Shown piece by piece: positions 3,261-64,000 of a stretch of DNA of 64,000 bases. Source of the stretch: Escherichia coli. Lineage in GTDB: Bacteria; Pseudomonadota; Gammaproteobacteria; Enterobacterales; Enterobacteriaceae. The notes below the pieces were generated by a model, which did not search any database, was not told the DNA's origin, and worked only from the letters and a program-made list of their open reading frames with translations. Location of the stretch: assembly GCF_003334305.1 (NCBI RefSeq), contig NZ_QOWS01000014.1, one strand, 5' to 3'. Both the position numbers and the translations under genes were made by a program. Each line of letters begins with the position of its first letter. Positions within the stretch are counted from its first letter, which is position 1.

Positions 3261-4887
3261 TAGGTTTCACTTTCGGAATATAGATTGAAAACAAGGTACC
3301 GCAGGGATCATTATCTTCGAGAGTGATAACACCACCGCAGCGCGTTACGTAGCTGGCAATCAAGTACAACCCAATGCCATGTTCACCGGGCTCGTCAGCA
3401 CGCGTACTGACCCCCTGCTCAAATATTTTGTCTCGTAGAGACTCTGGAACGCCGCAGCCCTGATCGGCGACTTCAATCACCACATCATCGCCTTCATCGC
3501 TGAGGAATAATTCAACGATCTTGTTTCCTTCATCGCTACGCAGGCTGGCTTCGAAGGCGTTATCAAGTAAATTGCCCACAATGGCTGCAAACTCGGTGCT
3601 ATCCAGTCCTGGCGGCAGTTGCGAAAGCTGGCTACCGGGGACAATGATCATTTTTAGCCCCAGTTCCCGGGCGCGCTGCACTTTACCAAAAAGCAGCCCC
3701 GCCACCTGGCGATCGGCAAACGCCTCACGCAGGCTGTCAATAAGCTGTTGCTGGGCCTGAGACTCCCCCTGCACCATCGCCAGCACGCGATCATACTCTT
3801 TCATCTGCAACAGACCATTGAGCGTCGACATCCAATTGAGATGCTCGTGTCGCAATGTACGAAGGCTCTCGACGTATTGTTTTATTTGCGTCAGTTGCGC
3901 ATTGAGGGTGGAAATTTCGTCTTTACTACGAAAGCTGATAATGGCCCCCAGCAAATCATCACCTGAACGAATAGCTTCCCGATTGGCAATAACGCTCAGA
4001 CCGTTAAAGTTAGCCACCACATCCTGACGTTTTTCATCAATCTGTTCGGTAAAGAAATCGGCGGGCCTGACCACTTCAGCAATGGGTTTACCCAACCATT
4101 GCCGTCCGGGAGAGCTCAGCCCCAGCATCTTTCTTGCGTTACGATTGATGGCGGTAATGTAACCATGCGGATCCACCGCAATCAGCCCTTCATAAACCGA
4201 ACTAAACAGCGCCTCTTGCTGACGGACCACGCGTGCGATTTGCTTTGGCTCCATGCCCATCATTTGCCGACGGATATGCGCTGCCAGGAACCACGACAGC
4301 AACATCAGAATCCCTAACAGCACGACAAACACGCCTGCCATCGGTAATAAAAACTCAGCCCGCCAGCTATCGATTTTACTCACCAGGTAGCCAATCGACA
4401 CCACGCCGATGACTTTTCCATCGTCATCAAAGATTGGCGTTTTGGCGCGCATCGCCATCCCCATTGACCCTTTCCCGGTAATGAAGTAGCTCTCCCCTTT
4501 CTCCAGCGCGCCCTGTTTGGTGAACTGCATAGGATAACCAATTTTCTCCGGATTAGGATGGTAAAGGCGGATCGAGTGCCGGTCCCCAATCACCACATAA
4601 TCAAAATCGGTATCTCTTTGTAATTTGTTAGCGATGGTCGCCAGCCGTTTGTAGTCACGCGTTTTCACCGCAGAGATGACACTGTCATTGGAGGCAATAA
4701 TTTTCGCCTGATTCATTGCCATGTCGCGTACATGAAGCGTTAAATAGTCCTCAAAACTGGCCGTAAAATATTGCGCCAGGGCTGCAATGACAAATATTGA
4801 GAACACCAGAATCAGCAAAAAGATACGCAGCGGAAATGCCAGTCTTTGGAAAAATGCAAACTGTTTATTCTCGTTAAGCTGCAACAT
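3229..4887 (-). CDS. dpiB: sensor histidine kinase DpiB (CitA), citrate sensing
   Basis: ORF 3229..4947 (-); start trimmed to the ATG giving MLQLNENKQFAFF (552 aa); two TM segments, PAS-like periplasmic domain, HATPase C-terminus. Confidence 0.88.
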   Translation of the reverse strand: MLQLNENKQFAFFQRLAFPLRIFLLILVFSIFVIAALAQYFTASFEDYLTLHVRDMAMNQAKIIASNDSVISAVKTRDYKRLATIANKLQRDTDFDYVVIGDRHSIRLYHPNPEKIGYPMQFTKQGALEKGESYFITGKGSMGMAMRAKTPIFDDDGKVIGVVSIGYLVSKIDSWRAEFLLPMAGVFVVLLGILMLLSWFLAAHIRRQMMGMEPKQIARVVRQQEALFSSVYEGLIAVDPHGYITAINRNARKMLGLSSPGRQWLGKPIAEVVRPADFFTEQIDEKRQDVVANFNGLSVIANREAIRSGDDLLGAIISFRSKDEISTLNAQLTQIKQYVESLRTLRHEHLNWMSTLNGLLQMKEYDRVLAMVQGESQAQQQLIDSLREAFADRQVAGLLFGKVQRARELGLKMIIVPGSQLSQLPPGLDSTEFAAIVGNLLDNAFEASLRSDEGNKIVELFLSDEGDDVVIEVADQGCGVPESLRDKIFEQGVSTRADEPGEHGIGLYLIASYVTRCGGVITLEDNDPCGTLFSIYIPKVKPNDSSINPIDR

Positions 4888-5266
4888 TGTTTTCCTTGCG
4901 GGTTGTCCCGAGCCTCTTTGACGGATGTAATTAAAATGTTGAATCAAAATACATAGATATTAATTATGATCGTGGCAAATTTTATTCATTAAATCAATTA
5001 AATCACTTAAACCTGCTGGTCATTTCGTAATTACATTAATTAAAAAACTTAAAACCATTAAATAAATAAAAAACCACTAACTCTATGTGAAATAAATCAA
5101 AATTTCACGCCGAAATACTCCTTAGGATGTATAGCGAAAGGAGAAAAAGATATACCTCGATCACCCCCCTTTCTCCCAAGTGAAAATAAAAGGTTATCAG
5201 TTTGCAACATTGAACAACATTCGTTGCAAATCGATAACAACATGCACCTTCAGGATACTATTTATT

Positions 5267-6325
5267 ATGTTCGGCAATGATATTTTCACCCGCGTAAAAC
5301 GTTCAGAAAATAAAAAAATGGCGGAAATCGCCCAATTCCTGCATGAAAATGATTTGAGCGTTGACACCACAGTCGAAGTATTTATTACCGTAACCCGCGA
5401 TGAAAAGCTTATCGCGTGCGGTGGAATTGCCGGAAATATTATTAAATGCGTTGCTATCAGTGAATCCGTTCGCGGTGAAGGACTGGCGCTGACATTAGCC
5501 ACTGAACTGATAAACCTCGCCTATGAGCGGCACAGCACGCATCTGTTTATTTATACCAAAACCGAATACGAGGCGCTGTTCCGCCAGTGCGGTTTTTCCA
5601 CGCTGACCAGCGTACCCGGCGTGATGGTGCTGATGGAAAACAGCGCCACGCGGCTGAAACGCTATGCCGAATCGCTGAAAAAATTTCGTCATCCAGGGAA
5701 CAAGATTGGCTGCATTGTGATGAACGCCAATCCCTTCACGAATGGTCACCGTTATCTGATTCAACAAGCTGCGGCACAGTGCAACTGGTTGCATCTGTTT
5801 TTAGTCAAAGAAGATTCTTCACGCTTCCCCTATGAAGACCGGTTGGATCTGGTGTTAAAAGGCACCGCCGATATTCCACGCCTGACTGTGCATCGCGGCT
5901 CCGAATACATCATCTCCCGCGCTACGTTCCCTTGCTACTTCATTAAAGAACAGAGCGTCATTAACCATTGTTACACCGAAATTGATCTGAAGATTTTCCG
6001 TCAGTACCTCGCTCCCGCGCTGGGTGTAACTCACCGCTTTGTCGGTACTGAACCCTTTTGTCGCGTTACCGCCCAGTACAACCAGGATATGCGCTACTGG
6101 CTGGAAACGCCGACTATCTCCGCACCGCCCATCGAACTGGTTGAAATTGAGCGGCTGCGTTACCAGGAGATGCCGATATCCGCTTCCCGGGTACGTCAAC
6201 TGCTGGCGAAAAACGATCTCACGGCTATCGCGCCGCTGGTCCCTGCAGTCACGCTGCATTATTTGCAGAACCTGCTTGAGCACTCCCGCCAGGACGCGGC
6301 AGCTCGTCAAAAGACCCCCGCATGA
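5267..6325 (+). CDS. citC: [citrate (pro-3S)-lyase] ligase CitC
   Basis: ORF 5180..6325; start trimmed to ATG at 5267 (MFGNDIFTRVK..., 352 aa); first gene of the citCDEFXG operon. Confidence 0.9.
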   Translation: MFGNDIFTRVKRSENKKMAEIAQFLHENDLSVDTTVEVFITVTRDEKLIACGGIAGNIIKCVAISESVRGEGLALTLATELINLAYERHSTHLFIYTKTEYEALFRQCGFSTLTSVPGVMVLMENSATRLKRYAESLKKFRHPGNKIGCIVMNANPFTNGHRYLIQQAAAQCNWLHLFLVKEDSSRFPYEDRLDLVLKGTADIPRLTVHRGSEYIISRATFPCYFIKEQSVINHCYTEIDLKIFRQYLAPALGVTHRFVGTEPFCRVTAQYNQDMRYWLETPTISAPPIELVEIERLRYQEMPISASRVRQLLAKNDLTAIAPLVPAVTLHYLQNLLEHSRQDAAARQKTPA

Positions 6326-6339
6326 GAAACAGGTGAAAA

Positions 6340-6636
6340 ATGAAAATAAACCAGCCCGCCGTTGCAGGCACCCTTGAGTCTGGGGATGTGATGATACGCA
6401 TCGCCCCACTCGATACGCAGGATATCGACCTGCAAATCAATAGCAGCGTTGAGAAACAGTTTGGCGATGCAATTCGCACCACCATTCTGGACGTTCTCGC
6501 CCGCTACAACGTGCGCGGCGTACAGCTGAATGTCGATGACAAAGGCGCACTGGACTGCATTTTACGTGCACGACTGGAAGCCCTGCTGGCACGCGCCAGC
6601 GGTATCCCGGCTCTGCCATGGGAGGATTGCCAATGA
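6340..6636 (+). CDS. citD: citrate lyase acyl carrier protein (gamma subunit) CitD
   Basis: 98-aa [27 protein letters not shown]; operon context. Confidence 0.92.
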
Positions 6637-7541
6637 TTTCCGCTTCGCTGCAACAACGTAAAACTCGCACCCGCCGCAGCATGTTGTTTGTGCCTGGTGC
6701 CAATGCCGCGATGGTCAGCAACTCCTTCATCTACCCGGCTGATGCCCTGATGTTTGACCTCGAAGACTCCGTAGCATTGCGTGAAAAAGACACCGCCCGC
6801 CGCATGGTTTACCACGCGCTGCAACATCCGCTGTATCGCGATATTGAAACCATTGTGCGTGTCAACGCGCTGGATTCCGAATGGGGTGTCAACGACCTGG
6901 AAGCCGTCGTTCGCGGTGGTGCGGACGTTGTGCGTCTGCCGAAAACCGATACCGCTCAGGATGTTCTGGATATCGAAAAAGAGATCCTGCGTATCGAAAA
7001 AGCCTGTGGTCGTGAACCCGGCAGCACCGGCCTGCTGGCGGCGATTGAATCTCCGCTGGGCATTACCCGCGCAGTGGAAATCGCTCACGCTTCCGAGCGT
7101 TTGATCGGTATCGCCCTCGGTGCAGAAGACTATGTGCGCAACCTGCGTACAGAACGCTCCCCGGAAGGAACTGAACTGCTGTTCGCACGCTGTTCCATTT
7201 TGCAGGCCGCGCGCTCTGCGGGTATTCAGGCGTTCGATACCGTCTATTCCGACGCTAACAACGAAGCCGGATTCCTGCAAGAAGCCGCCCACATCAAACA
7301 GCTGGGCTTTGACGGCAAATCGCTGATCAACCCGCGTCAGATTGATCTGTTGCACAACCTCTACGCACCAACCCAGAAAGAAGTGGATCACGCCCGCCGC
7401 GTCGTAGAAGCCGCTGAAGCCGCCGCTCGCGAAGGCCTCGGCGTGGTTTCCCTGAACGGCAAGATGGTGGACGGTCCGGTTATCGATCGCGCCCGTCTGG
7501 TGCTCTCTCGTGCAGAACTTTCCGGCATCCGCGAAGAATAA
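6633..7541 (+). CDS. citE: citrate lyase beta subunit (citryl-ACP lyase) CitE
   Basis: ORF 6618..7541; ATG at 6633 overlaps the citD stop (ATGA); GGAGG RBS upstream; [22 protein letters not shown]. Confidence 0.9.
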
Positions 7542-13796: not shown

Positions 13797-15035
13797 TCAT
13801 ATTGTTCCCCCCGGCATCGCATTCACCAGACCTGAAACCGCCTTCTGCGCCGCCTCTGCGCTTTGTGCACCGGGTACCAGAATCACCTTACGGCACTCCT
13901 CTTCACGTTTTTCGAAAATCTCATATCCCCGGGCGGCCTCTTCAAACGGCATATAGTGGGTAACAATTTCTTCTGGTTTCAGTAATCCTTTCTCAATTAA
14001 CGGTAATAATTCTCCCAGCCATGCGTGAACGTGGGTCTGTCCCATTTTAAACGTCAACCCTTTATCAAAGGCGTCGCCAAACAGGAAACCGTGAATAAAT
14101 CCAGCGTAGACGCCCGGTACGCTAACAATGCCGCCACGCCTGACCGCCGCAATACACTGGCGCAACGCTTTACCGCTGCTGCCCTCCAGTTTCAGGTTAG
14201 TCAGCACCGTTTCCGTGGTGCTGCCTTTCGCTTCAAAACCGACGGCGTCTATTACTGCATCCACGCCCCGGTGACCTGCCGTTTGTTCAATAATTGACTG
14301 TGCCGGATCGCTATCTTCATCGAAATTAATCGGGATCGCGCCGTAGCGGTCAGCGGCGAAACGCAAGCGGTAGGGATGATGATCAACAACAAAAATCTGT
14401 TCCGCACCGAGCAACCGTGCACAGGCGATTGTCAACAATCCCACTGGACCGGCACCATAGACTGCAACGCTTGAACCTTGTTGGATCTGCGCATTTTTTG
14501 CTGCCTGCCATGCCGTTGGCAGAATATCAGAAAGGAAAAGGGCTTTATCATCTGAAAGCAAAGGCGGTACTTTAAACGGCCCCACATTCTCTTTAGGGAC
14601 GCGGACATATTCCGCCTGTCCACCAGGAACGCCACCATACAGGTGACTATAACCAAACAATGCCGCGGGAGCTGGTATCTGTTTTTTATTGAGCGCAGCG
14701 CCTTTACCCGCATTGGTATTTTCGCAGGCGGCATATTGCTGCATTCGACAGAAAAAACAGTCGCCACAAGCAATGACAAACGGAATTACCACCCGGTCGC
14801 CTTTTTGCAAATTTTTTACGTCCTTTCCGGTTTCAACGACTTCCCCCATAAATTCATGACCAAAAATATCGCCATGTTTAACCTGGGGTATTTTGCCTCG
14901 ATAAAGATGGAGGTCAGAGCCACAGATCGCCGTTGCCGTAATACGCAGAATAATATCATCTGCCTGTTCAATGCCCGGATCGGGAACATTTTCTACCTGA
15001 ACGTGATGTGGGCCGTGATAAGTCAATGCTTTCAT
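13797..15035 (-). CDS. ybdR: Zn-dependent alcohol/threonine dehydrogenase-family oxidoreductase YbdR
   Basis: 412-aa [24 protein letters not shown]; GHEFMGEVV Zn-ADH motif. Confidence 0.88.
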
Positions 15036-15255
15036 GCAACCTCCAGAGACAGTTCAAAAAAGAGTCAGTCTTTAAGGGTAGCTATCACAGCGGGAAAACG
15101 GGCGGTACCGCAGGTTTTGGGAGAATTCCTGGTGTTCAGTGAGAATATATTAATCACAGAAACCGTTCGTAAGGAAAAAGAACCAGACAAATATCAGGGA
15201 TAAATATTATAATCATGGCGAATGATTTGTTCATGATTAACAGGGAGAAAGGGTT

Positions 15256-15684
15256 ATGTATAAGACAATCATTATGCCAGTTGATGTATTTGAAATGGAA
15301 TTGAGCGACAAAGCTGTTCGCCACGCTGAATTCCTCGCCCAGGATGACGGAGTTATTCATCTACTTCACGTACTACCCGGGTCAGCCAGCCTGAGCCTGC
15401 ACCGTTTTGCCGCTGATGTGCGTCGTTTTGAAGAGCATCTGCAACATGAAGCAGAAGAACGTCTGCAAACGATGGTCAGCCACTTCACCATCGATCCTTC
15501 CCGCATTAAACAACATGTCCGTTTTGGTAGCGTGCGGGATGAAGTCAATGAGTTGGCAGAAGAACTGGGGGCTGATGTTGTAGTTATTGGTTCTCGCAAC
15601 CCATCGATTTCGACCCATCTGTTAGGTTCTAACGCCTCGAGCGTGATCCGCCATGCCAATCTGCCGGTGCTGGTTGTGCGTTAA
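15256..15684 (+). CDS. uspG: universal stress protein G (UspG/YbdQ)
   Basis: 142-aa [31 protein letters not shown]. Confidence 0.9.
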
Positions 15685-15703
15685 TTGCCAGAATAAATAT
15701 CCC

Positions 15704-15737
15704 GCCCTGCCCGGAGCCATCCCGGCAGGGCTTTTTA
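15704..15737 (+). terminator. rho-independent terminator after uspG
   Basis: gccctgcccgg/cccggcagggc stem followed by TTTTT. Confidence 0.7.
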
Positions 15738-15744
15738 ATGCCAT

Positions 15745-15776
15745 AAAAAAGCCGCCAGGTTTGACCCCGGCGGCTA
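15745..15776 (-). terminator. rho-independent terminator after ahpF
   Basis: minus strand reads agccgccgggg...cctggcggc followed by a T-run, just past the ahpF stop. Confidence 0.6.
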
Positions 15777-15804
15777 AGCAATTGCAGGTGAATCTTACTT
15801 CTTC

Positions 15805-17370
15805 TTATGCAGTTTTGGTGCGAATCAGGTAGTCAAAAGCACTCAGAGAGGCTTTGGCACCTTCGCCAGTGGCGATGATGATCTGCTTGTACGGAACCGT
15901 CGTACAGTCACCCGCTGCGAATACGCCTTTGACGTTGGTTTCGCATTTCGCATCAATGATAATCTCACCCATGCGGTTACGTTCGACTGCGCCTTCCAGC
16001 CAGTTGGTGTTCGGCAGCAGACCAATCTGGACGAAAATACCGGCCAGTTCGATGTTGTGAATATCGCCGCTGACACGATCTCGATATTCCAGACCAACGA
16101 CTTTGCTGCCGTCGCCTTTCACTTCCGTGGTTTGCGCATTCAGAATAATGTCGACGTTTTTCAGGCTGCGCAGTTTGTCCTGCAGAACCTGGTCGGCTTT
16201 CATTTCTGGCGCAAATTCGAGCAGCGTTACGTGCTCAACGATACCCGCCAGGTCAATTGCCGCTTCCACGCCGGAGTTACCGCCGCCGATAACCGCTACG
16301 CGTTTGCCTTTAAACAGCGGGCCGTCGCAGTGCGGGCAGTAGGTCACGCCTTTGGTGCGATACTGATCTTCGCCAGGAACGTTCATGTTGCGCCATTTTG
16401 CACCGGTCGCCACGATAATGCTGCGTGCTTTCAGTACCGCGCCAGAAGCTGTTTCAATCTGATGCAGACCACCTTCAACTGCTGCTGGGATCAGTTTGCT
16501 GGCGCTCTGGCTGTCGATCACATCAACGTCGTATTCATCAACGTGAACTTTCAGTGCGCCTGCCAGCTTCTGCCCTTCAGTCTTCGGTACAGAAATGTAG
16601 TTTTCGATATCAACGGTATCGAGGATCTGACCACCAAAACGTTCGCCCATCAGACCGGTACGGATGCCTTTACGTGCGGAGTAAATTGCTGCAGCTGCAC
16701 CCGCCGGGCCGGAACCAACGATTAATACGTCATAAGCATCACGCTTGTTCAGCTCTTCTGCCGCACGTTTTTCCGCGCCCGTATCAATTTTGGCAACGAT
16801 TTCAGTCAACGTCATGCGGCCCTGACCAAACTCTTTCCCGTTTACGAACACTGCCGGAACGCCCATCACGTTGCGATCGGTGATTTCGTTCTGGAAGGTG
16901 CCGCCGTCAATTGCAGTGTGCTTGATGCGCGGGTTCAGTACGCTCATCAGGTTCAGCGCCTGCACCACGTCCGGGCAGTTATGGCAAGAGAGCGAGTAAT
17001 AGGTTTCGAATTCAAAATCACCGTCAATATGGCGAATCTGCTCCAGCAGAGACTGCGCTTCTTTCGACGGATGACCACCGGTCCATAGCAACGCCAGTAC
17101 CAGCGAGGTGAACTCGTGGCCCAGCGGGGAGCCTGCAAAACGTGGCCCCTGGTTGGAACCTGGGTTGGTGATCAGGAAAGACGGCTTACGCACCGGCAAG
17201 CTGTTATCTTCTTTAAAGGTGACTTTGTCTGACAGTTCTGCGATTTCAGCCAACAGTTCCTTGATTTCTGCCGATTTAGCGCTGTCATCCAGCGTGGCAA
17301 TTAACTCAACAGGCTTGGTCAATTTCTCAAGGTAAGCCTTGAGTTGAGTTTTCATATTTGTGTCGAGCAT
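15805..17370 (-). CDS. ahpF: alkyl hydroperoxide reductase subunit F
   Basis: ORF 15805..17400; start trimmed to the ATG giving [17 protein letters not shown] (521 aa); AGGAGA RBS. Confidence 0.93.
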
Positions 17371-17540
17371 GTTTATCTCCTGGGCTTTAAACATCATCAT
17401 GCAAGCGGCCTCTGCGGCTACCTGGATGCAGCTTGCATCATGGTGCGGGGAAGAAAATCGGGTGCCGCAGCACCCGAAGAATTAGGTGAATTTCCGAAGT
17501 ATTTCGCGCCGGAGTTGGTAGCGCGAAAGACGAAGGAAAT

Positions 17541-18104
17541 TTAGATTTTACCAACCAGGTCCAGAGACGGAGCCAGAGTTGCTTCACCTTCTTTCCATTT
17601 AGCCGGGCAAACTTCACCTGGGTGAGAAGCTACGTACTGTGCTGCTTTGATTTTACGCAGCAGGTCAGACGCGTCACGGCCAATGCCTTCAGCGGTAACT
17701 TCGATTGCCTGGATGATACCCTGCGGGTCAACAACGAAGGTCGCACGGTCAGCCAGACCTTCATCTTCACGCATGTTGTCGAAGTTACGGGTCAGGGCGC
17801 CAGTCGGGTCGCCGATCATCGCATATTTGATTTTAGCGATGGTTTCAGAGCTGCTGTGCCATGCTTTGTGGGTGAAGTGAGTATCGGTAGATACTGCGTA
17901 TACGTCTACGCCCAGTTTCTGCAGTTCTTCGTAGTGGTCAGCAACGTCACCCAGTTCGGTCGGGCATACGAAAGTAAAGTCAGCCGGGTAGAAGAAGAAG
18001 ACGCTCCAGCGGCCTTCGGTATCTTTTTCGGTGATTTCGATGAATTCGCCGTTTTTGAATGCCTGGTTTTTAAAAGGTTTAATTTTGGTGTTAATCAAGG
18101 ACAT
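17541..18104 (-). CDS. ahpC: alkyl hydroperoxide reductase subunit C (peroxiredoxin)
   Basis: 187-aa [26 protein letters not shown]. Confidence 0.95.
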
Positions 18105-38994: not shown

Positions 38995-39009
38995 ATAGAT
39001 AATGTTAAT

Positions 39010-44553: not shown

Positions 44554-46794
44554 ATGAACAAGAAGATTCATTCCCTGGCCTTGTTGGTCAATCTGGGGAT
44601 TTATGGGGTAGCGCAGGCACAAGAGCCGACCGATACTCCTGTTTCACATGACGATACTATTGTCGTTACCGCCGCCGAGCAGAACTTGCAGGCACCTGGC
44701 GTTTCGACCATCACCGCAGATGAAATCCGCAAAAACCCAGTTGCCCGCGATGTGTCGGAGATCATCCGTACCATGCCAGGCGTTAACCTGACCGGTAACT
44801 CCACCAGTGGTCAGCGTGGTAATAACCGCCAGATTGATATTCGCGGCATGGGTCCGGAAAACACGCTGATTTTGATTGACGGCAAGCCAGTAAGCAGCCG
44901 TAATTCGGTGCGTCAGGGCTGGCGTGGTGAGCGCGATACCCGTGGTGATACCTCCTGGGTGCCACCTGAAATGATTGAACGTATTGAAGTTCTGCGTGGT
45001 CCGGCAGCTGCGCGTTATGGCAACGGCGCGGCGGGCGGCGTGGTTAACATCATTACCAAAAAAGGCAGTGGTGAGTGGCACGGCTCCTGGGATGCTTATT
45101 TCAATGCGCCAGAACATAAAGAGGAAGGTGCCACCAAACGTACCAACTTCAGCCTGACCGGTCCGCTGGGCGACGAATTCAGCTTCCGCTTGTATGGCAA
45201 CCTCGACAAAACCCAGGCTGACGCGTGGGATATCAACCAGGGCCATCAGTCCGCGCGTGCCGGAACGTATGCCACGACGTTACCAGCCGGGCGCGAAGGG
45301 GTGATCAACAAAGATATTAATGGCGTGGTGCGCTGGGACTTCGCGCCTCTGCAATCACTCGAACTGGAAGCGGGTTACAGCCGCCAGGGTAACCTGTATG
45401 CGGGCGATACCCAGAACACCAACTCTGACGCTTACACTCGCTCGAAATATGGCGATGAAACCAACCGCCTGTATCGCCAGAACTACTCGCTGACCTGGAA
45501 CGGTGGCTGGGATAACGGCGTGACCACCAGCAACTGGGTGCAGTACGAACACACCCGTAACTCGCGTATTCCGGAAGGTCTGGCGGGCGGTACCGAAGGG
45601 AAATTTAACGAAAAAGCGACACAGGATTTCGTCGATATCGATCTTGATGACGTGATGCTGCACAGCGAAGTTAACCTGCCGATTGATTTCCTCGTTAACC
45701 AGACGCTGACGCTGGGTACGGAGTGGAATCAGCAACGGATGAAGGACTTGAGTTCCAATACCCAGGCGCTGACCGGGGCGAACACCGGCGGCGCTATTGA
45801 TGGTGTGAGTGCCACCGACCGTAGCCCGTATTCAAAAGCAGAAATTTTCTCGCTGTTTGCCGAAAACAACATGGAGCTGACTGACAGCACCATCGTAACG
45901 CCGGGGCTGCGTTTCGATCATCACAGTATTGTCGGCAATAACTGGAGCCCGGCGCTGAACATATCGCAAGGTTTAGGCGATGACTTCACGCTCAAAATGG
46001 GCATTGCCCGTGCTTATAAAGCACCGAGCCTGTACCAGACTAACCCGAACTACATTCTCTACAGTAAAGGTCAGGGTTGCTATGCCAGCGCGGGCGGCTG
46101 CTATCTGCAAGGTAACGATGACCTGAAAGCAGAAACCAGCATCAACAAAGAGATTGGTCTGGAGTTCAAACGCGACGGCTGGCTGGCGGGCGTCACCTGG
46201 TTCCGTAACGATTATCGCAATAAGATTGAAGCGGGCTATGTGGCTGTAGGGCAAAACGCAGTCGGCACCGATCTCTATCAGTGGGATAACGTGCCGAAAG
46301 CAGTGGTTGAAGGTCTGGAAGGATCGTTAAACGTACCAGTTAGCGAAACGGTGATGTGGACCAATAACATCACTTATATGCTGAAGAGTGAAAACAAAAC
46401 CACGGGCGACCGTTTGTCGATCATCCCGGAGTACACGTTGAACTCAACGCTGAGCTGGCAGGCGCGGGAAGATTTGTCGATGCAAACGACCTTCACCTGG
46501 TACGGTAAGCAGCAGCCGAAAAAATACAACTACAAAGGTCAGCCAGCGGTTGGCCCGGAAACCAAAGAAATCAGTCCTTACAGCATTGTGGGTCTGAGCG
46601 CGACCTGGGATGTGACGAAGAATGTCAGTCTGACCGGCGGCGTGGACAACCTGTTCGACAAACGTTTGTGGCGTGCGGGTAATGCCCAGACCACGGGCGA
46701 TCTGGCAGGGGCCAACTATATCGCGGGTGCCGGGGCGTATACCTATAACGAGCCGGGACGTACGTGGTACATGAGCGTAAACACTCACTTCTGA
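44554..46794 (+). CDS. fepA: TonB-dependent ferric enterobactin outer-membrane receptor FepA
   Basis: ORF 44494..46794; start trimmed to ATG at 44554 (MNKKIHSLALLVNLGIYGVAQA signal peptide, 746 aa); TonB box DTIVVTA; C-terminal F. Confidence 0.93.
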   Translation: MNKKIHSLALLVNLGIYGVAQAQEPTDTPVSHDDTIVVTAAEQNLQAPGVSTITADEIRKNPVARDVSEIIRTMPGVNLTGNSTSGQRGNNRQIDIRGMGPENTLILIDGKPVSSRNSVRQGWRGERDTRGDTSWVPPEMIERIEVLRGPAAARYGNGAAGGVVNIITKKGSGEWHGSWDAYFNAPEHKEEGATKRTNFSLTGPLGDEFSFRLYGNLDKTQADAWDINQGHQSARAGTYATTLPAGREGVINKDINGVVRWDFAPLQSLELEAGYSRQGNLYAGDTQNTNSDAYTRSKYGDETNRLYRQNYSLTWNGGWDNGVTTSNWVQYEHTRNSRIPEGLAGGTEGKFNEKATQDFVDIDLDDVMLHSEVNLPIDFLVNQTLTLGTEWNQQRMKDLSSNTQALTGANTGGAIDGVSATDRSPYSKAEIFSLFAENNMELTDSTIVTPGLRFDHHSIVGNNWSPALNISQGLGDDFTLKMGIARAYKAPSLYQTNPNYILYSKGQGCYASAGGCYLQGNDDLKAETSINKEIGLEFKRDGWLAGVTWFRNDYRNKIEAGYVAVGQNAVGTDLYQWDNVPKAVVEGLEGSLNVPVSETVMWTNNITYMLKSENKTTGDRLSIIPEYTLNSTLSWQAREDLSMQTTFTWYGKQQPKKYNYKGQPAVGPETKEISPYSIVGLSATWDVTKNVSLTGGVDNLFDKRLWRAGNAQTTGDLAGANYIAGAGAYTYNEPGRTWYMSVNTHF

Positions 46795-46833
46795 TGCTAA
46801 CGTCAGATTGTTGACAAAGTGCGCGTCGTTCAT

Positions 46834-46931
46834 GCCGGATGCGGCGTGAACGCCTTATCCGGCCTACAAAAATCTTGCCAATTCAATATATTGCAGGACC
46901 ATGTAGGCCTGATAAGCGTAGCGCATCAGGC
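46834..46931. repeat. BIME-like pair of inverted REP elements downstream of fepA
   Basis: gccggatgcggcgtgaacgccttatccggcctac (46834..46867) and inverted gtaggcctgataagcgtagcgcatcaggc (46893..46931). Confidence 0.8.
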
Positions 46932-46968
46932 AGTTTAGCGTTTGTCATCAGTCTCTAATATGGTCGAC

Positions 46969-47589
46969 ATGAAAACTACGCATACCTCCCTCCCCTTTGC
47001 CGGACATACGCTGCATTTTGTTGAGTTCGATCCGGCGAATTTTTGTGAGCAGGATTTACTCTGGCTGCCGCATTACGCGCAACTGCAACACGCTGGACGG
47101 AAGCGCAAAGCCGAACATTTAGCCGGGCGGATCGCTGCAATTTATGCGCTGCGGGAATATGGCTATAAATGTGTGCCCGCAATCGGCGAGCTACGCCAAC
47201 CGGTGTGGCCTGCGGAGGTATACGGCAGTATTAGCCACTGCGGGGCTACGGCATTGGCCGTGGTTTCCCGTCAACCGATTGGCGTTGATATCGAAGAAAT
47301 TTTTTCTGCGCAAACAGCGACCGAATTGACAGACAACATTATTACACCAGCAGAACACGAGCGACTCGCAGACTGCGGTTTAGCCTTTTCTCTGGCGCTG
47401 ACACTGGCATTTTCCGCCAAAGAGAGCGCATTTAAGGCAAGTGAGATCCAAACTGATGCAGGTTTTCTGGACTATCAGATAATTAGCTGGAATAAACAGC
47501 AGGTCATCATTCATCGTGAGAATGAGATGTTTGCTGTGCACTGGCAGATAAAAGAAAAAATAGTCATAACTCTGTGCCAACACGATTAA
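46969..47589 (+). CDS. entD: 4'-phosphopantetheinyl transferase EntD
   Basis: ORF 46942..47589 (track start is TTG); start placed at the ATG giving MKTTHTSLPFAGHTLHFVEF; an in-frame ATG 9 bp upstream (MVDMKTT) is an alternative. Confidence 0.85.
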   Translation: MKTTHTSLPFAGHTLHFVEFDPANFCEQDLLWLPHYAQLQHAGRKRKAEHLAGRIAAIYALREYGYKCVPAIGELRQPVWPAEVYGSISHCGATALAVVSRQPIGVDIEEIFSAQTATELTDNIITPAEHERLADCGLAFSLALTLAFSAKESAFKASEIQTDAGFLDYQIISWNKQQVIIHRENEMFAVHWQIKEKIVITLCQHD

Positions 47590-47710
47590 TTGACAACATC
47601 TGGTACGATTCGCCCGCAGCCATCACTGACCGCGGGCGAAAGTGTAAAGCAGGTGCCTTACCACTCTGACCTGACAACCGGATATGCGGGGATTGCTCCC
47701 CGCACAACGG

Positions 47711-47863
47711 CTACTTCTTCGGTTCGTAAGCGAGAACAGCCTTAAACTCAATATTACGTTCCTTTACGGTGAACTCACACAGCGAGTCTCCGACCAGAAG
47801 CGTAAATCCCAGTACCGTCAAACACAGCACTATGACTGCCACAAGGGCATATTTCGTCAGCAT
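47711..47863 (-). CDS. hokE: Hok-family type I toxin (copy 1)
   Basis: 50-aa [50 protein letters not shown]; the frame is open a further 33 codons upstream to an ATG at 47962 (MKPQEIF...). Confidence 0.85.
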
Positions 47864-47939
47864 GTTTATATTGCCTCCATGCGAAGAAGGGACTACCATC
47901 CGAGTTGTTGAGGCTCGGAGTGGCAGCCCCAGGATTGAT

Positions 47940-48010
47940 AGAAATATCTCCTGGGGCTTCATCTTTCCAGACCTCAGAGTTAACCTGAAACCGGAAAGCT
48001 TCAGGCACCC
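47940..48010 (+). ncRNA. candidate Sok-like antisense RNA, copy 1 (position inferred)
   Basis: placed antisense to the mok-like start/RBS region by analogy with hok/sok architecture; stem-loop cctgaaaccggaaagcttcagg on this strand; no promoter verified. Confidence 0.25.
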
Positions 48011-48213
48011 GCCGTTATCTTACCCTTCCTCAACAAAATAGCTGTTTATTTATACAGTGAATCCTGTTTCGGACTTCTGTCGGCAAAACTCATCATTGCT
48101 CTTAAAACGAAATCGCCCGCAGCCATCACTGACCGCGGGCGAAAGTGTAAAGCAGGTGCCTTACCATCCTGACCTGACAACCGGATATGCGGGGATTGCT
48201 CCCCGCACAACGG

Positions 48214-48366
48214 CTACTTCTTCGGTTCGTAAGCGAGAACAACCTTAAACTCAATATTACGTTCCTTTACGGTGAACTCACACAGCGAATCCCCGACCAG
48301 AAGCGTAAATCCCAGCACCGTTAAACACAGCACTATGACTGCCGCAAGGGCATATTTCGTCAGCAT
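48214..48366 (-). CDS. Hok-family type I toxin (copy 2)
   Basis: 50-aa [50 protein letters not shown]; 2 aa substitutions relative to copy 1 (V8A, A42V). Confidence 0.85.
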
Positions 48367-48466
48367 GTTTATATTGCCTCCATGCGAAGAAGGGACTACC
48401 ATCCAAATTGTTCAGGTTTGGGTAGGTAGCCCCAGGGTTGATAGAAATATCGTCCTGGGGCTTCAT
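48278..48466 (-). CDS. mok-like overlapping leader ORF (copy 2), out of frame with hok
   Basis: 62-codon ORF starting MKPQDD at the position homologous to the copy-1 MKPQ start, ending inside hok in another frame, as in the canonical mok/hok arrangement. Confidence 0.3.
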
Positions 48467-48514
48467 CTTTCCAGACCTCAGAGTAAACCTGAAACCGGAA
48501 AGCTTCAGGCACCC
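48444..48514 (+). ncRNA. candidate Sok-like antisense RNA, copy 2 (position inferred)
   Basis: homologous position to the copy-1 candidate. Confidence 0.2.
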
Positions 48515-48798
48515 GCAGTTATCTTACCCTTGCTTAGCAAAATAGCTGTTTATTTATACAGTAAGTCCTGTTTCGGACTTCTCACTCCCCATTTGATCAA
48601 CTGAAGCTGAACCCGTTTTTTTCTGCATGCCTCAATCGTCAAAATTCTTCGCCACCAGCCAGCCGTGCCATAACTTGTCACATTGCAAAAGTAGCCAAAT
48701 TGCTTCAGTCACCATCACCAAAAAAAGAAACATTCCAGAACTTCCGCATCTCGCCCAGCCGCTCCGACTTCTATACTGAATAGAAAACGCCAACTTAA

Positions 48799-49926
<1,128 letters not shown>

Positions 49927-63467: not shown

Positions 63468-64000
63468 ATGTCAACCGGATTACGTTTCACACTGGAAGTG
63501 GACGGCCTGCCGCCGGATGCTTTTGCGGTGGTTTCCTTTCATCTGAACCAGTCACTCTCTTCGCTCTTTTCCCTCGATCTCTCCCTGGTCAGCCAGCAGT
63601 TTCTCTCCCTTGAATTTGCGCAGGTGCTGGACAAAATGGCCTACCTGACGATATGGCAGGGCGATGAAGTACAGCGCCGGGTGAAAGGCGTGGTGACCTG
63701 GTTTGAACTCGGGGAGAACGACAAAAACCAGATGCTGTACAGCATGAAGGTGCACCCGCCGCTGTGGCGTGCCGGTCTGCGCCAGAACTTCCGTATCTTC
63801 CAGAACGAGGACATCAAAAGCATCCTCGGCACGATGTTGCAGGAAAACGGGGTGACCGAATGGAGTCCGCTGTTCAGCGAGCCGCATCCTTCCCGTGAGT
63901 TTTGTGTCCAGTACGGTGAGACTGATTACGATTTCCTGTGCCGGATGGCGGCGGAGGAAGGCATCTTCTTTTATGAGGAGCACGCGCAAAAAAGTACCGA
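63468..64000 (+). CDS. vgrG: VgrG-like type VI secretion spike protein, N-terminal part only (runs off the window)
   Basis: ATG at 63468 preceded by GGAGG RBS; translation MSTGLRFTLEVDGLPPDAFAVVSFHLNQSLSSLFSLDLSLVSQQFLSLEFAQVLDK... is a typical VgrG N-terminus; not on the ORF track because there is no stop within the window. Confidence 0.75.
   Translation, partial: MSTGLRFTLEVDGLPPDAFAVVSFHLNQSLSSLFSLDLSLVSQQFLSLEFAQVLDKMAYLTIWQGDEVQRRVKGVVTWFELGENDKNQMLYSMKVHPPLWRAGLRQNFRIFQNEDIKSILGTMLQENGVTEWSPLFSEPHPSREFCVQYGETDYDFLCRMAAEEGIFFYEEHAQKST

Follow-up and report, generated by a model that had tools for sequence, protein, structure and literature searches.

The 121 bp that separate entD from the first of two tandem hokE/sokE units (type I toxin-antitoxin) are very likely the empty form of a site that IS186 has entered repeatedly in other strains, lying in the 3' untranslated region (UTR) of the first unit. 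In the 64,000-nt stretch of Escherichia coli DNA analyzed here (the window), fepA (ending at 46794, plus strand) is followed by a REP-rich spacer, entD (phosphopantetheinyl transferase; 46969 to 47589, plus strand), two small open reading frames (ORFs) on the minus strand, and ybdK (48808 to 49926, plus strand), which forms the right-hand flank of the hokE locus as it does in K-12. entD was assigned from the ORF list and the RefSeq annotation of a near-identical genome, and ybdK from the ORF list and annotation. The spacer between fepA and entD (46800 to 46940) contains REP/BIME-like palindromes, and its Rfam matches, to ES036 (40.5 bits) and naRNA4 (38 bits), are sub-threshold or marginal. 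The entD stop codon, TAA, occupies 47587 to 47589 on the plus strand and the stop codon of hokE copy 1 occupies 47711 to 47713, so the gap measures exactly 121 bp (47590 to 47710) and has no room for an insertion sequence (IS). An earlier note, made from the sequence alone, had put this IS-free gap at about 120 bp.

The same note had stated that K-12 carries an IS186 copy between entD and hokE, and the annotation of MG1655 confirms this. There the order is ybdK, sokE, hokE, IS186B, entD, fepA, with hokE at 607836 to 607988, IS186B (insL2; 1.3 kb) at 608007 to 609351, and entD at 609459 to 610079. Direct alignment showed that the K-12 junction is interrupted and placed the insertion point at window positions 47688 to 47701; to either side of this point, window and K-12 align in the same order, and the two aligned parts overlap briefly at 47689 to 47700. 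The K-12 junctions, GGGGATTACTCC on one side of IS186 and GGATTACTCCCC on the other, revealed a 10-bp target duplication. Read at greater length, they run GCGGGGATTACTCC / CATAAGCG up to the IS and CGCTTATG / GGATTACTCCCCGC beyond it. Once the IS and one copy of the duplication are taken out, K-12 becomes colinear with the window.

The insertion point falls in a hairpin just past the hok stop codon. Its core in the window, GGGGATTGCTCCCC at 47688 to 47701, reads GGGG(ATTGCT)CCCC and is a perfect IS186 target of the form GGGG(N6)CCCC; the variable part is ATTGCT in the window versus ATTACT in K-12, E. coli B, and ATCC 8739. The published target, GGGG(N6/N7)CCCC, is rare: the whole genome of K-12 has 19 sites of the N6 form and 35 of the N7 form (PMC5009759). 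A motif search of the 64-kb window found only two GGGG(N6/7)CCCC sites, at 47688 to 47701 and 48191 to 48204, each within a hok post-stop hairpin. The copy-1 hairpin, GCGGGGATTGCTCCCCGC, spans 47686 to 47703 and was also delimited by the junction sequences, and the copy-2 hairpin (48189 to 48206) holds the second empty target, again GGGGATTGCTCCCC. K-12 hokC has the homologous post-stop hairpin, GGGG(ATCACT)CCCC, 19 nt from its stop codon, and IS186A sits in it with a 10-bp duplication (within the K-12 region 14800 to 17600). Two of the three IS186 copies of K-12 thus lie behind hok genes. The presence of a rare IS186 motif in the hok post-stop hairpin explains both this placement and the repeated insertion at the same site across the species.

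The two minus-strand genes encode 50-amino-acid (aa) Hok-family toxins. Copy 1 (47711 to 47863) differs from K-12 HokE at a single residue (A8V) and is identical to WP_000956465.1, which is RefSeq HokE; copy 2 (48214 to 48366) also differs at one residue (A42V) and is identical to WP_000956456.1. Matches to NCBIfam Hok-family models had E values of 1e-9 to 4e-13 but lay below the curated cutoffs (the scores were 49 and 45 bits, where the HokA model requires 89), and no HokE-specific NCBIfam model scored above its cutoff for either protein. The name HokE therefore rests on identity to K-12 HokE at 49 of 50 residues in each copy and on RefSeq, which calls the identical proteins HokE in a genome that matches this locus at 100%. 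The genes are part of a larger duplication with a spacing of 503 bp: positions 47610 to 47909 recur at 48113 to 48412 with 97% identity, and positions 47949 to 48078 recur at 48453 to 48582 with 95% identity. The repeat boundaries leave a unique 34-bp spacer (48079 to 48112) joining the two units. Compared with window positions 47590 to 48640, the single hokE unit of K-12 is a patchwork of copy-1 and copy-2 variants, with the left flank of copy 1 and the right flank of copy 2. Such a pattern fits unequal crossing-over, or gene conversion from one tandem copy to another, in either direction.

Each unit also contains putative accessory elements of a hok/sok locus. An in-frame AUG 36 nt upstream of hok opens a mok-like ORF of 62 aa in both copies (47711 to 47899, minus strand, in copy 1), with no obvious Shine-Dalgarno sequence; in copy 1, the open frame extends beyond this AUG as far as an ATG at 47962. 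K-12 mokC, annotated in frame with hokC and ending at the same stop codon, offers a parallel. Homologues of the Sok antisense RNA lie on the plus strand at 47907 to 47966, where 55 of 60 nt match the K-12 sokE annotation, and at 48410 to 48470, assigned by homology to K-12 sokE. Upstream is the putative Sok promoter, TTGCCT and TACCAT separated by 17 nt, which is identical to that of K-12 and was recognized by homology. The leaders of the hokE mRNAs were matched on the minus strand by Rfam model RF01794 at 47855 to 48010 in copy 1 (86.5 bits; gathering score, 59) and at 48358 to 48514 in copy 2 (86.2 bits). RF01794 carries the name "sok antitoxin," and its matches fall on the hok-sense strand, where they cover the leader as far as the hok AUG, with K-12 sokE annotated on the other strand. 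The model thus appears, from the strand of its matches, to describe the hok leader and not the Sok RNA. A 110-aa ORF at 48272 to 48604 on the plus strand, antisense to hokE copy 2 and its leader, is listed in RefSeq as a hypothetical protein (WP_009008364.1) and is probably an annotation artifact of the hok/sok RNA region.

In the mRNA of plasmid R1 hok, a 5'-terminal element (tac) folds back on a 3' element (fbi) (PMC9841398). We folded the minus strand of each unit from the start of its RF01794 match (48010 and 48514) to just beyond the terminal hairpin. Both the minimum-free-energy and the centroid structures close the two ends of the molecule on each other: nucleotides 1 to 8 pair with 353 to 360 in copy 1 (z = -8.4 relative to shuffled controls) and with 354 to 361 in copy 2 (z = -6.7). 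In both predictions, the mRNA 5' end, GGGUGCCU, pairs with AGGCACCU in the 3' UTR, and a terminal hairpin of 13 to 14 bp follows. These elements map, on the minus strand, to a predicted tac at 48003 to 48010 and a predicted fbi at 47651 to 47658 in copy 1, and to a predicted fbi at 48154 to 48161 in copy 2. Removing IS186A from K-12 hokC in silico restored an equivalent pair, GGGUGCUUG and CAAcGCACCC, which differs from the hokE pair by a compensatory change. For hokE, the tac/fbi helix is predicted on thermodynamic grounds, and covariation lends it very little support.

The ends of the transcripts are less sharply defined than the elements within them. A simple sigma-70 scan of the region found no promoter, so the hok transcription start is placed from the start of the Rfam model and by analogy with R1. 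At the other end, a U tract, TTTCGTTTTA, comes directly after the copy-2 hairpin (48113 to 48142, minus strand; terminator scan and fold). The copy-1 hairpin (47609 to 47640, minus strand; inverted repeat and fold nucleotides 371 to 402) has a 14-bp stem, forms the left boundary of the 503-bp repeat unit, and is followed by AUCGUACC. It lacks a U tract and was not flagged by the terminator scan; the absence of the U tract makes the true 3' end of copy 1 uncertain, and copy-1 transcripts may extend into the 3' end of entD in the antisense direction.

Taken together, these elements suggest a hokE mRNA that would start near 48010 on the minus strand and carry, in order, the leader targeted by Sok, the in-frame mok-like ORF, the 50-codon hok ORF (stop at 47711), the GC hairpin at 47686 to 47703, fbi at 47651 to 47658, and the terminal hairpin at 47609 to 47640, so that some 20 nt would separate its end from the entD stop codon. 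If hokE works as R1 hok/sok does, pairing between fbi and the 5' tac would keep the full-length mRNA closed, stable, and untranslatable, and slow trimming from the 3' end would then open it to either Sok binding or translation. For hokE, we infer both the transcript ends and this regulatory role of the helix. In K-12, B, and ATCC 8739, IS186 separates the hok ORF from its predicted fbi and terminator by 1.3 kb, and the effect on hokE expression is likewise deduced from this layout. K-12 hokA, hokC, and hokE are called IS-inactivated in the statements of PMC7232551 and PMC12214031 that follow Pedersen and Gerdes (1999). In the W-like strain of the window, neither copy has been hit, and both units keep all of their predicted cis elements.

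We considered whether the 121 bp might instead be a functionless spacer or the terminator region of entD, its likeness to a hok 3' UTR and to the IS186 motif being incidental. The hairpin at 47609 to 47640 begins 20 nt past the entD stop codon and could terminate plus-strand transcription of entD, and the scans detected neither a promoter nor a canonical terminator for copy 1. Against this reading, positions 47610 to 47710 recur with 97% identity after the second hok copy, which has no entD beside it, and in sequence type 131 (ST131) the same block follows hok but adjoins a different gene; the block therefore belongs to the hok unit, with which it travels, and not to entD. In both copies it also includes sequence complementary to the mRNA 5' end, and hokC is arranged likewise. 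We regard an entD terminator or idle spacer as very improbable and read the gap as the 3' UTR of hokE copy 1, on the evidence of the sequence, the K-12 alignment, and the predicted RNA fold.

We examined how this junction is distributed among 5,426 complete E. coli genomes. A 221-nt query across the junction found it uninterrupted in 2,899 genomes, making this the majority state, and most of the remaining genomes break at query position 161, which corresponds to window position 47700. Junctions with IS186 in the K-12 orientation numbered 1,741 on one side and 1,727 on the other (about 1,730 genomes, or about a third), and the opposite orientation was found in 286 genomes, O104:H4 among them. 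The flank part of the IS queries lies inside the 503-bp repeat, so the hok copy that bears the IS is indistinguishable in these counts: they include insertions behind either copy and overlap with the uninterrupted class. An ST131-type left flank was found in 629 genomes. Together, the four classes come to about 5,540, which exceeds the 5,426 genomes in the set. In these 629 genomes, such as ST131 strain 4433 (extracted locus 1 to 2500), the hokE pair adjoins a block of SDR-oxidoreductase and ABC-transporter genes and not entD. The ST131 break falls exactly at window position 47609, the start of the hok repeat unit.

The junction between tandem hokE copies was present in 2,052 of the 5,426 genomes, as counted with a 91-nt query, the flanks of which are so short that neither could produce a match by itself. 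A count of 2,981 obtained with a 171-nt query was rejected because half-matches to single-copy loci had been joined at exactly 80% coverage. The junction is found in O157:H7, IAI1, and a W-derived strain, among others, and the whole locus is present in one piece in W and O55:H7.

Individual genomes reveal that IS186 has entered these hairpins more than once. E. coli B (BLR(DE3)) and ATCC 8739 share the K-12 insertion, down to the ATTACT core, the orientation, the 10-bp duplication, and the exact junctions, GGGGATTACTCC and GGATTACTCCCC. In BLR(DE3), the upstream sequence of hokE, toward ybdK, has also given way to fragments of IS3, IS1A, and IS150 (5271 to 7161 of the extracted locus), which means that the B locus is disrupted on both sides. 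In strain GPEC79-13-647 (NZ_CM142761.1), the flanks are identical to those of the window and IS186 is present behind both hokE copies, in opposite orientations, at 3661 to 5010 and at about 5513 to 6863 of the extracted locus. Insertions in both orientations and behind both copies amount to at least three independent insertions into hokE hairpins. The hokE post-stop hairpin is a recurrent hot spot for IS186, for which GPEC79-13-647 provides direct evidence.

The strain background agrees with the state of the junction. Positions 39001 to 64000 of the window match strain A7 (NZ_CP028767.1) best, at 100% identity, and E. coli W at 99.4%, and identity to K-12 across the hokE locus is about 95%. 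The last 533 nt of the window (63468 to 64000, plus strand) encode the N terminus of a VgrG type VI secretion tip protein (TIGR03361; E = 1.5e-51); this 5' part of a vgrG gene adjoins cusS where K-12 has nfrB. The window thus has none of the K-12-lineage traits, namely, IS186B between hokE and entD, a single hokE, and nfrB beside cusS. The earlier note had argued from the missing IS, together with the vgrG flank, that the DNA is not from a K-12 derivative, and its conclusion is borne out by the empty junction, the two hokE copies versus one, vgrG in place of nfrB, and the identities to A7 and W. As a sign of lineage, the absence of the IS needs a narrower reading than the note gave it: it does rule out K-12, but the insertion is not specific to K-12, being shared by B, ATCC 8739, and others among the roughly 1,730 genomes of 5,426, and its absence is the commoner state. 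The comparison with other laboratory strains that the note had proposed found B interrupted in the same way as K-12 and W uninterrupted in one piece. That the strain is W-like and not K-12 is, as judged from these sequence comparisons, a sound conclusion; by inference, it belongs to phylogroup B1. Two records labeled "DH5alpha," NZ_CP026085.1 and NZ_CM135829.1 (4.83 Mb), match the window at 99.4% over an uninterrupted 25 kb, as W does. At this locus they are not K-12 derivatives, and the labels are probably wrong.

An empty site could also arise by precise excision of an IS186 copy that the junction had once borne, as K-12 does now, in which case the window could descend from an IS-bearing lineage. 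Excision of this kind would leave exactly the structure seen here, since K-12 lines up colinearly with the window when stripped of the IS and of one copy of the duplication. IS elements rarely excise precisely, however. The window also differs from K-12, B, and ATCC 8739 in the target core itself, has two hok copies, and diverges from K-12 by about 5% across the locus. Most genomes have an empty junction, among them strains as diverse as O157:H7, O55:H7, O111:H8, and IAI1, and the close relative W is without any IS186 copy (PMC3032704). A past insertion and excision at this site is hardly credible on this evidence, and we take the junction to be one that IS186 has not entered.

The earlier note had further described the hok loci as uninterrupted and probably functional. 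They are uninterrupted, and the Hok ORFs, the Sok homologues and their promoters, the mok-like ORFs, the predicted tac/fbi helices, and the terminal hairpins are intact in both copies. Function is not thereby established; from sequence, it is plausible. One feature bearing on it is the missing U tract behind the copy-1 terminal hairpin, and another is residue 46, which is Tyr in HokE and Cys in toxic Hok proteins. In HokE, Cys46 arises only through A-to-I editing of the mRNA, which is partial (about 40% in K-12), and UACG is the context in which TadA edits hokE mRNA to recode Tyr46 to Cys (PMC12214031). The Tyr46 codon stands in a UACG context in both copies of the window, at 47720 to 47731 and 48223 to 48234 (GCU UAC GAA CCG on the minus strand).

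It could be supposed that the intact tandem pair is an active toxin-antitoxin module, serving, for example, in stress-induced growth arrest, persistence, or phage defense, and that IS186 insertion elsewhere represents selected loss of function. All cis elements are intact in both copies, overexpression of HokE has been reported to be toxic (bioRxiv 10.1101/2025.08.07.668861), hok/sok loci are hot spots for mobile-element insertion whose disruption is possibly adaptive (bioRxiv 10.1101/527788), and IS186 insertions do recur at hokE hairpins. This recurrence, however, is sufficiently explained by the rare perfect IS186 motif, and HokE depends on partial mRNA editing for Cys46. Moreover, IS-free chromosomal hokA, hokB, and hokC showed neither post-segregational killing nor activation by rifampicin, according to the later summary, in bioRxiv 10.1101/2025.08.07.668861, of Pedersen and Gerdes (1999). 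We therefore think it unlikely that the pair is such a module. A further proposal, that use of the hokE and hokC hairpins as IS186 targets has led to repeated knockout (at least three events, reaching up to about 37% of complete genomes) by uncoupling the ORF from fbi and the terminator, that the frequency of insertion reflects selection against active chromosomal hok and not just target preference, and that the IS-free pair of the window would be active and costly, strikes us as decidedly doubtful.

An empty IS186 site beside hokE is an ordinary and already documented strain polymorphism, and each component of the coincidence between the hairpin and the IS186 motif has been published. What our analysis adds is that the gap is a hok mRNA 3' UTR, as predicted from alignment and folding, that its hairpin is a recurrently hit IS186 target, and that the tandem pair is widespread. 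The strain of the window keeps both hokE units with all of their regulatory RNA elements. The state of the junction offers a rapid way to exclude a K-12, B, or ATCC 8739 background, although its practical value is modest.

Among known systems, the K-12 hokE/sokE locus (b4415/b4835) with IS186B (insL2, b0582) resembles the window in its position between entD and ybdK, in the conserved sokE and its promoter, and in the 3' UTR sequence itself, which in K-12 is split between the two sides of the IS. It differs in having one mosaic unit and a 1.3-kb IS186B, whereas the window has two IS-free units 503 bp apart. K-12 hokC/sokC with IS186A likewise has a GGGG(N6)CCCC target hairpin between the hok ORF and fbi, but lies at a different site (dnaJ-nhaA), encodes a different Hok paralogue, and is occupied, whereas both hokE sites of the window are empty. 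The hok/sok locus of plasmid R1 shares with the window a 50-aa Hok/Gef toxin, an overlapping upstream frame, an antisense RNA of about 60 nt directed to the leader, a closing 5'-3' helix (predicted here), a terminal hairpin, and a GC hairpin after the stop codon. In R1, mok is out of frame with hok; the hokE units of the window differ in having the mok-like frame in frame with hok, in being chromosomal and tandem, and in carrying Tyr46. The closest counterparts are the adjacent hok-2.1 and hok-2.2 of adherent-invasive E. coli (AIEC) NRG857c, two IS-free hokE units at the same locus (PMC7232551), and the several hokE copies of E. coli W (PMC3032704). About 10% of Hok genes occur in islets of 2 to 6 copies (bioRxiv 10.1101/2025.08.07.668861), and the locus in the window is an ordinary member of these tandem hok islets, with no substantive difference from them.
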